Source: Escherichia phage pinkbiff. From it: a DNA stretch of 64,000 nucleotides. Location: sequence record MN850603.1; one strand, 5' to 3'. The translations under genes and the position numbers were made by a program. Below, one piece after another: positions 62,440 to 64,000 of the stretch (the stretch's first letter is position 1; every line of letters begins with the position of its first letter). The notes beneath the pieces were generated by a model. It made no database searches, was not told where the DNA came from, and saw nothing but the letters and a program-made list of their open reading frames with translations.

Positions 62440-62800
62440 GAAATTTGGTGAGTATACTGAGCAGCATAAACCAACGGGTACTCACCAGCATCACTTAAGA
62501 GTTTTTTGAAAAGGGTTTTTAAGTGATGTTCGGTATAGTCAGGTACTGTGCTGCTTGGTGAGGTGCGGCTAGGTCAGGTAAGACATGGTATGTCGAGGTG
62601 TTGTGGGGTCTGGTCAGGTATGGGTAGTTAGTCTCAGCTACATTAAAATGAGACTTACCTTTTTAAAAGGTCTTTAAATAGGGTCTTTTAATAAGGTCTG
62701 GTCGTGTCCGGTTCGGTAGTGTTGGGCTTGGCTTGGTCTGGTCTGGTAAGGGTGGATGGTAGTAGCCACGTTAAAAATCTACCAAGTTTCTAAAGAGTCT
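62440..62800. repeat. non-coding region with short direct repeats (GGTCAGGTAAG / GGTCTGGTCAGG-type) and a block also found at 63919-64000
   Basis: Repeats at about 62575, 62603, 62745; block ttttaaaaggtctttaa(a/g)(t/g)agggtcttttaataaggt at 62662-62700 recurs at 63920-63958. Confidence 0.6.
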
Positions 62801-62859
62801 TCTATTGAGGGTTCTTTACAAACAACTTAACAATCAACTAAAGTGTGGAGCTAAATGCT

Positions 62860-63447
62860 ATGAAACTGTTAAATATCAAAATCACTGGTACTCGTCCTTT
62901 CCTGAGCCATAACGATACGTTGTCAGACCCATTAAACCCTCTGACAAAATATCACAAATCTCTGTCCAGTAAACGTAAAAAGACTGACGAAGACTATGCG
63001 CTCTTAGCAGAAAGCCAACTGGTAACTTCTTGTTACTACGATGAGCAACTTGGTTTTGTTATGAACGGTGAGATGATTGAGGCTTGTATCAAGTCTGGTG
63101 CAAAACTCAACAAACTTGGTAAGGTAATTGACCGAGCCATTATGCTGACAGATGTAGTCTTCCCAATGACTATCAAGAACTGTCCAGCAAACCCACAAGA
63201 ACTTGCTAAGAATCCAGACTTTATCTATGCTAAGTCTGTTAAGATTGGTACAGCACGAGTTATGAGCTACCGTCCAATCTTCCGTGACTGGTCTGTAGAG
63301 TTCGGTTTGATGTTCGATGAAGAGCAAATTACCAAAGAAGAACTCTTGATGGTTCTGGAAAATGCTGGTAACCTTTGTGGTGTAGGTGATTGGCGTCCAC
63401 GCTTTGGTCGTTTTTCTGTAGAAGTTATTTCAGAAGGTAACGTTTAA
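62860..63447 (+). CDS. hypothetical protein (195 aa)
   Basis: ATG 62860 with GTGGAG SD; track starts at GTG 62845. Confidence 0.55.
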
Positions 63448-63449
63448 TT

Positions 63450-63890
63450 ATGAATACAAAAGCATTAGCAGCAAAGTTTAGTTACGGTGACACTGTATCA
63501 CACTCTGAGATGGATACCTTCTTAGGTATTGTGAAGCCAACTTATCAAGGTGACATTGTTAAGTACGAAGATGAAATGAAGGCTTATGCGCTTACACGTC
63601 TAAACCGACTTGAGAAGTTTATTGAGAAGCTTCTTAAAGAAGAGAAGATTTATCTGGTTGCTTCAATGGGTGTTGGTTATCGTGTGGTTGAACCTAAGCA
63701 TCAAGCAACTATTGCAAAACGTAAAATGTCTGGTAAGATTGGTCGAGCTTTAAAGCAAGCCACTCAAGCAATTGAGAATGTGAACACTATGGCACTTAGC
63801 CATCAAGAACGTTCACGACTAATTGAACAGCAAAACCATTTAGCTGCTATGAAAGCTAACATTAACAAGCAACGTAGAAAGCCTTTCTAA
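63450..63890 (+). CDS. hypothetical protein (146 aa)
   Basis: ATG with GAAGGTAA SD. Confidence 0.55.
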   Translation: MNTKALAAKFSYGDTVSHSEMDTFLGIVKPTYQGDIVKYEDEMKAYALTRLNRLEKFIEKLLKEEKIYLVASMGVGYRVVEPKHQATIAKRKMSGKIGRALKQATQAIENVNTMALSHQERSRLIEQQNHLAAMKANINKQRRKPF

Positions 63891-63899
63891 GTTGACTAG

Positions 63900-63926
63900 G
63901 CAGCCTCTTCGGAGGCTCCTTTTTAA
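63900..63926 (+). terminator. rho-independent terminator
   Basis: gcctc-ttcg-gaggc hairpin followed by TCCTTTTT. Confidence 0.6.
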
Positions 63927-64000
63927 AAGGTCTTTAAGAGGGTCTTTTAATAAGGTATGGTTCGGTCAGGTAAGGTTAGGCGCTGTAAGGTGCGGTCTGG

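Follow-up and report, generated by a model that had tools for sequence, protein, structure and literature searches.

At the right-hand end of a 64,000-nt stretch of Escherichia phage pinkbiff (sequence record MN850603.1; this whole stretch is referred to as the window), a short non-coding block recurs on both sides of two protein genes and alternates with tracts of five-nucleotide repeats. The source of the window is a Felix O1-like myovirus of the genus Felixounavirus, and 259 phage records match its region 61000-64000 at 80-99% identity. The genes on the + strand of this part of the genome are those for a T7-like DNA polymerase (56629-59358), small open reading frames (ORFs) and the gene for an ATP-dependent DNA ligase (61143-62246), behind which the block and the tracts begin. 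As laid out below, these elements very probably belong to VIPR (Viral Interference Programmable Repeat), a CRISPR-like system of RNA-guided DNA silencing that was first reported in 2026 and is, as such, already known. VIPR consists of Vipr, an early-branching RAMP protein, and of guide RNAs (vrRNAs) made up of 9-16 YNNGG repeats and a constant 3' tail (10.64898/2026.04.26.720920). Vipr protomers polymerise on the repeats, the NN bases read double-stranded DNA, one base being skipped per unit, and transcription is silenced; the accessory gene vap1 strengthens the protection (10.64898/2026.04.26.720920; 10.64898/2026.04.26.720927). Two side results are new, i.e. hairpins between the guides and orphan vrRNAs in Felixounavirus loci from which the cassette of vipr and vap1 is missing. 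The features of the locus are as follows.

62431-62458, + strand: promoter P1, sigma-70 type, TTGACA-16-TATACT, 11/12 consensus match.
62447-62486, no strand assigned: palindrome that straddles the -10 element of P1.
62488-62529, + strand: M' hairpin, 19-bp RNA stem directly 5' of vrRNA-a, -15.5 kcal/mol, z -5.2.
62525-62624, + strand: vrRNA-a tract, 20 NNGGY pentamers, the third base being degenerate in 6-7 of them.
62622-62659, + strand: 3' tail of vrRNA-a, H1 type, H-type pseudoknot found by reading the sequence.
62657-62697, + strand: M hairpin (block at 62660-62696), 17-bp RNA stem with three G·U pairs, -13.6 kcal/mol, z -3.9.
62693-62752, + strand: vrRNA-b tract, 12 NNGGY pentamers.
62750-62786, + strand: 3' tail of vrRNA-b, H2 type, pseudoknot.
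62786-62823, + strand: Mx hairpin of the same class, between the tail of vrRNA-b and vipr, -13.6 kcal/mol.
62860-63447, + strand: vipr, 195-amino-acid RAMP-like protein, 191/195 identical to PDB 36pp.
63450-63890, + strand: vap1, 146-amino-acid VIPR accessory protein, directly after vipr.
63902-63917, + strand: terminator-like GC-rich hairpin after vap1.
63918-63956, + strand: second copy of the M hairpin (block at 63920-63955).
63952-64000, + strand: vrRNA-c tract, cut by the end of the window.

Scanning the window for in-phase GGT units revealed these three tracts only, all on the + strand and with up to 8 GGT per 60 nt. In the complete 88-kb genome of the relative PK6, such tracts are confined to the VIPR locus. 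The original prediction, which was made from the letters of the window alone, had noted GGTCAGGTAAG-type repeats next to the block; these repeats are real and more regular than had been noted, i.e. they form strictly 5-nt periodic NNGGY tracts (for instance TCGGT ATAGT CAGGT ...). Because the period is 5, the tracts are non-coding and a small ORF running across them is excluded. We mapped the conserved elements of the locus in 30 related loci. The 80 guides in these loci are 10-20 units long, most often 12, counting the constant first and last units, and the tract lengths almost all fall in one residue class modulo 5. Moreover, the distances from M to the tail step by multiples of 5 nt (94, 99, 104, 109 and 114). 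In the pentamers of the 67 unique guides, G occupies position 3 in 79% (T in 13%, A in 8%) and position 4 in 97%. Y is found at position 5 in 99%, and the base composition at NN is nearly even. The tracts are, in total, tandem YNNGG pentamers that keep strictly in phase, with a fixed GGY and a hypervariable NN.

In the SUSP1 clade of VIPR, the tail of the vrRNA forms a pseudoknot (10.64898/2026.04.26.720920), which is visible by cryo-EM in SUSP1 (10.64898/2026.04.26.720927). Here, the tails fall in three classes (H1, H2 and H2b). In the H1 tail of vrRNA-a, the sequence of which is conserved across loci, GUAG pairs by inspection with CUAC in the loop of the hairpin AGUCUCA/UGAGACU, and folding of this tail predicts the nested hairpin only. 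In the H2 tail of vrRNA-b, GUGG pairs with CCAC next to the hairpin GGUAG/CUACC. When the H2 and H2b tails were aligned with the tail of a satellite-borne vrRNA described below, the pseudoknot and the hairpin were paired in 97% of the cells compared with 30-46% when the pairing partner was slid, and four pairs were compensatory, one of which comes from the satellite-borne tail. The H1 tail has the same topology as H2 and H2b by inspection. A constant 3' tail of ~40 nt with a pseudoknot is thus present, and each guide would consist of 12-20 NN-GG-Y pentamers capped by a pseudoknot tail of ~38 nt.

The two genes between the copies of the block identify the system. The protein encoded by the first gene is 191/195 identical to the "SUSP1 Vipr protein" of PDB 36pp (E 6e-128), which exceeds the 90% cut-off used for the SUSP1 clade (10.64898/2026.04.26.720920); a profile search with the family matched one PDB entry, again 36pp (E 4e-81). 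The AlphaFold model of the protein has a pLDDT of 95, its nearest folds are Csm3 and Cas7, and the top Foldseek matches are to Csm3 with a TM of about 0.5. The gene thus encodes a minimal RAMP protein. The family comprises 520 database clusters and matches no Pfam domain. The adjacent accessory gene, vap1, shares 99.3% identity with its SUSP1 counterpart, which is the second gene there; the product of vap1 belongs to phrog_5926 and has no Pfam match. Since the genes between the block copies are vipr and vap1, we conclude that the locus is a type II VIPR system.

The link between such proteins and such tracts extends beyond the close relatives. An IMG/VR scan for six in-phase GGT units returned more than 120 loci, many of them unrelated viral contigs with imperfect arrays of NNGGT tracts, and in at least 27 of these contigs tblastn with vipr found homologues (20-49% identity) beside the NNGGY arrays. 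Among the unrelated environmental viral contigs, L071 (2200-3400; these labels are our own), L057, L059, L067, L080, L086 and L131 carry up to about 14 vrRNA-like tracts beside distant Vipr homologues. The spacers between the guides in these arrays are different and much shorter, e.g. AAGGAATGGTTTAATGAATTTAAT.

These data bear on the idea that the G-rich tracts act without a dedicated protein, as an R-loop or G-quadruplex origin, as an antisense Rho-loading (rut) site or as a hot spot of the RecA/Chi kind. The non-template strand of the tracts is indeed G-rich and C-poor, it lies downstream of a strong promoter in a block of replication genes, and the cassette between the tracts is found in some relatives and missing in others. 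A protein-free role predicts neither the strict 5-nt phase and the constant GGY with its free NN, nor the conserved pseudoknot cap, nor the linkage to a RAMP protein across unrelated phages, nor the matches of the NN code to a satellite, and we consider it barely credible. Several specific candidates were accordingly dropped once the Vipr homologues beside the arrays and the PDB match had been found: an R-loop/G-quadruplex origin (compare immunoglobulin switch pentamers, ColE1 and T4 oriF), an RNA that wraps a ring protein in the manner of TRAP, an antisense rut site and a GT-rich hot spot of the RecA/Chi type. Primase sites of the T7 type (GGGTC/TGGTC) were rejected, as the base following GGT is unbiased. 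A CRISPR array was rejected as well: the repeat unit is 5 nt, conserved elements of 37-38 nt (tail and M) alternate with tracts that all obey NNGGY, and vipr is the only RAMP-like gene and has no linked cas genes.

The layout agrees with that of the type II VIPR system. The IMG/VR locus L006 stems from virtually the same phage and reveals the sequence past position 64000: vrRNA-c has 17 pentamers and an H1 tail and is followed by M, vrRNA-d, an H2b tail and a promoter, P2. The order of the locus would then be the sigma-70 promoter P1, vrRNA-a, vrRNA-b, vipr, vap1, vrRNA-c at the edge of the window and vrRNA-d outside it. Guides lie both upstream and downstream of vipr-vap1, i.e. two upstream in the window and two downstream, the latter completed from the near-identical L006. 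In infected cells, SUSP1 expresses one vrRNA upstream and three downstream of vipr-vap1, and the vrRNAs are ~100 nt in size (10.64898/2026.04.26.720920); our element map of the SUSP1 locus (L021), with one guide upstream and three downstream, reproduces this published layout.

The vrRNAs of SUSP1 are mostly aimed at a satellite phage in E. coli genomes (10.64898/2026.04.26.720920). We searched for targets with the published one-base-skip code (NNx), in which two bases are read and one is skipped per unit, and applied the 80% NN identity that the VIPR paper uses as its match cut-off. The exact NNx pattern of units 2-11 of vrRNA-c matched six homologous metagenome contigs, and the full guide matched the satellite at 31/34 NN; the site spans the last codons of a gene for a 236-amino-acid protein and the ribosome-binding site of the following gene, which encodes 67 amino acids. 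vrRNA-d matched the satellite at 22/24 NN just upstream of the first gene in a leftward operon, ~30 nt before a gene for 185 amino acids. vrRNA-a matched it at 31/40 NN inside the tape-measure gene (best of 200 unit-shuffled guides, 28). The two targets in coding sequence, those of vrRNA-a and vrRNA-c, are in frame, with the skipped bases at codon wobble positions. Across the related loci, 40 of the 67 unique guides reached at least 80% on 13 satellite copies, and none did so when the order of the units was shuffled. Three of the four guides of this phage thus match the satellite under the one-base skip. Scans of IMG/VR with exact NNx patterns returned no real target, and a single match to a picorna-like RNA virus was judged to be due to chance. 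Self-targets were not found: the best NN matches of the four guides in the window and the PK6 genome were 55-71%, i.e. under 80%.

Of 5426 complete E. coli genomes, 538-545 (about 10%) contain the satellite. In strain FY10, it is an island of ~11.6 kb between wrbA and ymdF with genes for a serine recombinase, baseplate and tape-measure proteins, an HNH endonuclease and an adenine methylase. Compared with the counterparts in Felixounavirus PK6, the baseplate protein of the satellite shows 66% identity and the tape-measure protein 35-51%. The guides of this phage would point at a parasitic E. coli satellite of ~11.6 kb with Felixounavirus-like tail genes. The FY10 satellite carries a vrRNA-like tract of its own (L171, 20997-21085) with a sigma-70 promoter (TTGACA-17-TAAGAT) and a terminator. 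The tail of this vrRNA is an H2-like pseudoknot with a compensatory hairpin GUCG/CGAC, and neither an M hairpin nor a vipr gene lies nearby.

Altogether, we assign 62431-64000, with a probability of roughly 0.93, to a SUSP1-clade VIPR locus of type II in a Felix O1-like phage; three quarters of the locus, counted from its left end, fall inside the window. Two observations weigh against this assignment: vrRNA-b had no target above noise in the satellite copies, in IMG/VR or among the GTDB species representatives (the six matches among the last were in unrelated taxa and at about chance level), and vrRNA-a has 6-7 units with a third base other than G and a best match just under the 80% cut-off. 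Nothing that we found contradicts membership in VIPR. vrRNA expression, Vipr binding and target repression have been demonstrated for SUSP1 and P. fulva only (10.64898/2026.04.26.720920; 10.64898/2026.04.26.720927). By analogy with the SUSP1 protein, which is 98% identical, one Vipr protomer would bind per pentamer to build a helical filament; the variable NN of this filament would read double-stranded DNA as NNx, and its binding would repress transcription.

The block itself is a real repeat, as the original prediction had stated. The sequence TTTTTAAAAGGTCTTTAAATAGGGTCTTTTAATAAGG lies at 62660-62696 and again at 63920-63955 with one deletion and one substitution, both central, giving a length of 36-37 nt; in 100 shuffles, no chance match to the block was obtained. 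A third, diverged copy that had been overlooked, M' (repeat family D14), lies at 62488-62529. Each copy had been placed between a gene end and the next gene on the + strand. This holds for the first copy, which lies between the ligase gene and the next + strand gene; the second copy follows the second gene of the two-gene cassette. The search for further copies that had been suggested, run on the window, found them at the VIPR locus, and the other matches occur only as a cluster in a non-coding region at 18.2-19.1 kb. BLAST of the tail plus M against the 5426 E. coli genomes gave no matches, and Rfam returned nothing over 60000-64000 except a chance match to a snoRNA.

M, M' and Mx each fold as a hairpin of 16-22 bp with z-scores of -3.4 to -5.2. 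The hairpin is retained in all variants (40 of M, 23 of M' and 3 of Mx), and the mean fold of the 40 unique M variants is -13.5 kcal/mol. The outer stem of M pairs the end of the preceding tail (ACCUU) with the first pentamer (AAGGU). The outer stems are wholly different in the three classes while complementarity is kept (ACCUU/AAGGU, GCAUCAC/GUGAUGU and GUUU/AAAC). In a joint alignment of M, M' and Mx, 97% of the cells are paired compared with 46-66% when slid, and two-sided, i.e. compensatory, changes are present at 7/16 pairs. Because the stem needs G·U pairs, a function in RNA is favoured over one in DNA. Every guide, as well as vipr, has an M-class hairpin in front. A mature guide has no room for the block, given an RNA of ~100 nt, and the block therefore lies outside it. 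M' sits downstream of P1 and within the transcript expected from P1; in SUSP1, a copy of M' lies between two vrRNAs, behind a tail without a U-run. These positions indicate that at least those copies are transcribed and are not promoters.

The block had been regarded as a reused promoter or regulatory unit. It is a reused non-coding module at the boundaries between units; it is not a promoter of the neighbouring protein genes. A narrower version of the idea is that the block is a promoter, of the sigma-70 or a phage-modified type, that starts each vrRNA, so that the module would run promoter, guide, terminator. In line with this idea, M always lies behind a terminator-like element (the H1 tail with U5 or the GC hairpin after vap1), and the downstream array requires either read-through of the terminator of vap1 or a promoter of its own. 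Moreover, the tract starts right at the end of the block, which is about where a vrRNA of ~100 nt (10.64898/2026.04.26.720920) places the mature 5' end. However, M contains no acceptable -35 and -10 elements: TTTAAT and TAATAA lack -11A or -7T by eye, and a sigma-70 consensus scan reported P1 and a weak site in Mx and no hexamers spaced by 16-18 bp in M. The weak site, TTTACA-18-TAAAGT at 62815-62844 (9/12), is a promoter-like match that overlaps Mx. The positions of M' described above, the G·U pairs of the stem, which have a meaning in RNA only, and the covariation of the outer stems of M, M' and Mx all speak against a promoter, as does the finding that the motif does not lie upstream of other genes. 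We regard a promoter as improbable, at about one chance in a handful.

The original prediction had further tied the block to transcript starts. The block is probably associated with RNA starts, since it lies directly 5' of the tract and the ~100 nt of the SUSP1 vrRNA set the 5' end near there; such RNA starts may arise by processing instead of initiation.

At the DNA level, the block also has the form of a direct repeat, with two copies of AGGTCTTTAA ~13 bp apart, and these might be a site at which Vap1, or the binder of the motifs at 17.7-19.4 kb, regulates the locus. Related half-sites are enriched in the window (29 compared with 10 expected) and cluster at 18.2-19.1 kb, and Vap1 is predicted to be a DNA-binding protein (10.64898/2026.04.26.720920). 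By contrast, M is equally conserved where the vipr-vap1 cassette is missing, also in phage UAB_Phi87 with no vap1 anywhere in its genome, and direct repeats do not account for the covariation of the outer stems. A DNA-binding site is thus less probable still than a promoter. A boxA-like antitermination site in the block, for which GGUCUUUAA was likened to GCUCUUUAA, was dropped.

Most likely, and as an interpretation of these patterns, the M-class hairpin is a signal for processing or insulation by which a longer transcript is divided into its units. This role is suggested by the presence of an M-class hairpin in front of every vrRNA and vipr. It is also suggested by the hammerhead ribozymes that lie between the guides in other VIPR types, of which the M-class hairpins would be the counterpart; by this parallel, the hairpins are taken as processing or insulating signals and possibly as RNase III sites. 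Four points weigh against such a role. Most changes inside the M family itself affect one side of a pair only. The evidence for compensation comes from just three paralogous classes, M, M' and Mx. The direct repeats are placed after a terminator-like hairpin behind vap1, where a promoter or a protein-binding role is conceivable. Finally, the vrRNA carried by the satellite is served by an ordinary sigma-70 promoter and lacks an M-type hairpin. How type II vrRNAs are produced is not discussed in either preprint, and the terms RNase, precursor, maturation and biogenesis are absent from the text of 10.64898/2026.04.26.720920; the hairpin before every guide and vipr offers a concrete handle on the making of these RNAs.

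P1 is the best-conserved stretch of the spacer across 232 phage records and is kept in 27/27 related loci that carry vrRNA tracts. P1 would be the start of the transcript of the upstream vrRNAs and vipr-vap1. The palindrome reported in the original prediction was recovered as GGTGAGTA at 62447-62454 and TACTCACC at 62479-62486, and its left arm overlaps the -10 of P1. In relatives without VIPR (L022-L024, about 5100-5340), a palindrome with a matching layout and other arm sequences places its right arm immediately ahead of the following gene's ribosome-binding site. These counterparts suggest an operator or read-through hairpin that is older than the insertion of the VIPR module, and the palindrome is probably such an operator or read-through hairpin and lies outside VIPR proper. 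Between the ligase gene and P1, an ORF for a basic protein of 62 amino acids (62246-62434; phrog_5428) is present; it is found in PK6 too, and is not found in Felix O1 at that position.

In its full form, the locus in the related phages consists of ligase, P1, M', tract, H1 tail, M, tract, H2 tail, Mx, vipr (195 amino acids) and vap1 (146 amino acids), followed by the GC hairpin T, M, a tract, at least one further tail-M-tract unit, the H2b tail, P2 and the next gene. Of about 259 related phage records, only 117 encode Vipr. In five of the 30 mapped loci, vipr-vap1 is missing and the M-class hairpins and two guides are retained; these guides continue to match the satellite. The Felix O1 locus (L002, 4011-4200) has P1, M', one tract, H2b and P2 and, at this locus, no vipr-vap1, and in three more distant relatives P1 directly precedes the next gene and tracts are absent. 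UAB_Phi87 (L033; JN225449.1; loci L172-L173) encodes no Vipr or Vap1 in its whole genome as judged by tblastn and a profile search; even so, two vrRNAs remain, their tails intact, and one of them agrees with the satellite at 23/24 NN. Vipr is 98-100% identical among Felixounavirus, SUSP1/SUSP2 and Citrobacter phage Moogle, and the adjoining ligase is 84-99% identical across related loci; the lower identity of the ligase suggests a recent exchange of the whole VIPR module between genera.

The orphan guides raise the question whether guides can use Vipr supplied in trans. In the Felixounavirus loci with vrRNAs only (e.g. UAB_Phi87 and Felix O1), Vipr would come from a co-infecting relative or from another element. 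We tentatively propose that the M-class hairpins are maturation signals at which a host nuclease of the RNase III kind frees the guides and the vipr mRNA and that, at the same time, the orphan guides work with Vipr in trans; for both parts to hold together, the odds are somewhat worse than even. The PhageMaP paper (on Felixounavirus Bas63) and the Felixounavirus annotation paper are silent on this locus.

Elsewhere in the window, a 1.7-kb stretch without ORFs (17710-19400) is dense in the short motifs CTTAACAG, CTAACAAG and CTTTTAAG on both strands and includes a 12-bp tandem run at 17920-17996. In the satellite (L171, 20470-22500), a similar motif-rich non-coding stretch is 81% identical to the window over 18222-18269. 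The region may be a packaging, terminus or replication region that was copied by the satellite. On the minus strand at 19650-24700, at least seven copies of an intergenic cassette, a GC hairpin followed by AAACCCTTAAACTAGGAGATTCAAAAATG (families D2, D5, D6, D9 and D13), lie between small genes of an early type. The ORF at 11626-13011 contains four tandem coding repeats of 249-252 nt (12163-12996; families D8 and D15) that look like Ig-like domains. Finally, 26 tRNA genes are interspersed with small ORFs on the minus strand at 2796-7968.

VIPR has only recently been added to the known ways of recognising DNA by an RNA guide, and the window contains a textbook example: what looked like an ordinary repeat between the genes of a common coliphage turns out to belong to a guide-RNA array. 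The one-base-skip code of the preprint can be re-derived with public sequence alone, and pattern scans alone led from the guides to a satellite carried by roughly a tenth of the complete E. coli genomes.

Several known systems resemble parts of the locus. TRAP binds (G/U)AG-N2-3 repeats in the trp leader of Bacillus as a closed 11-mer ring that senses tryptophan. Like Vipr, it is an oligomer on single-stranded RNA with a triplet repeated every ~5 nt; unlike Vipr, it guides no DNA recognition, and it belongs to an unrelated family. In the early mRNA of phage T7, hairpins with characteristic internal loops are processed by RNase III between functional units. They and the M hairpins both have ~16-22 bp and lie between the units of a polycistronic RNA, and M is at the short end for RNase III.

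The backbones of Class 1 CRISPR systems, with Cas7 or Csm3 on the crRNA, share with VIPR the RAMP fold, one protomer per short RNA segment, a periodically interrupted pairing with the target and a guide made up of a variable part and a constant handle. VIPR differs in its period of 5 nt, with two read bases per unit, and in its double-stranded DNA target with a one-base skip. Here, moreover, no repeat-spacer array and no cas1, cas2 or other cas genes are present, and the system is encoded by a phage against another mobile element.

In type I and type V VIPR, hammerhead ribozymes (10.64898/2026.04.26.720920) place a structured RNA between successive guides, where the M hairpins sit here. The M hairpins differ from them in being plain hairpins without an Rfam match, and cleavage, putative here, would need a host or phage nuclease.

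The closest counterpart is the type II VIPR of SUSP1. The text of neither SUSP1 preprint discusses hairpins 5' of each guide or orphan guides. The two systems are alike in their proteins (Vipr 98% and Vap1 99% identical), in the YNNGG design and the pseudoknot tails of the guides, in having guides on both sides of vipr-vap1, and in matching the same kind of E. coli satellite with a one-base skip. They differ in that the system described here resides in a Felixounavirus genome, has a 2 + 2 instead of a 1 + 3 array and carries other NN contents in its guides.

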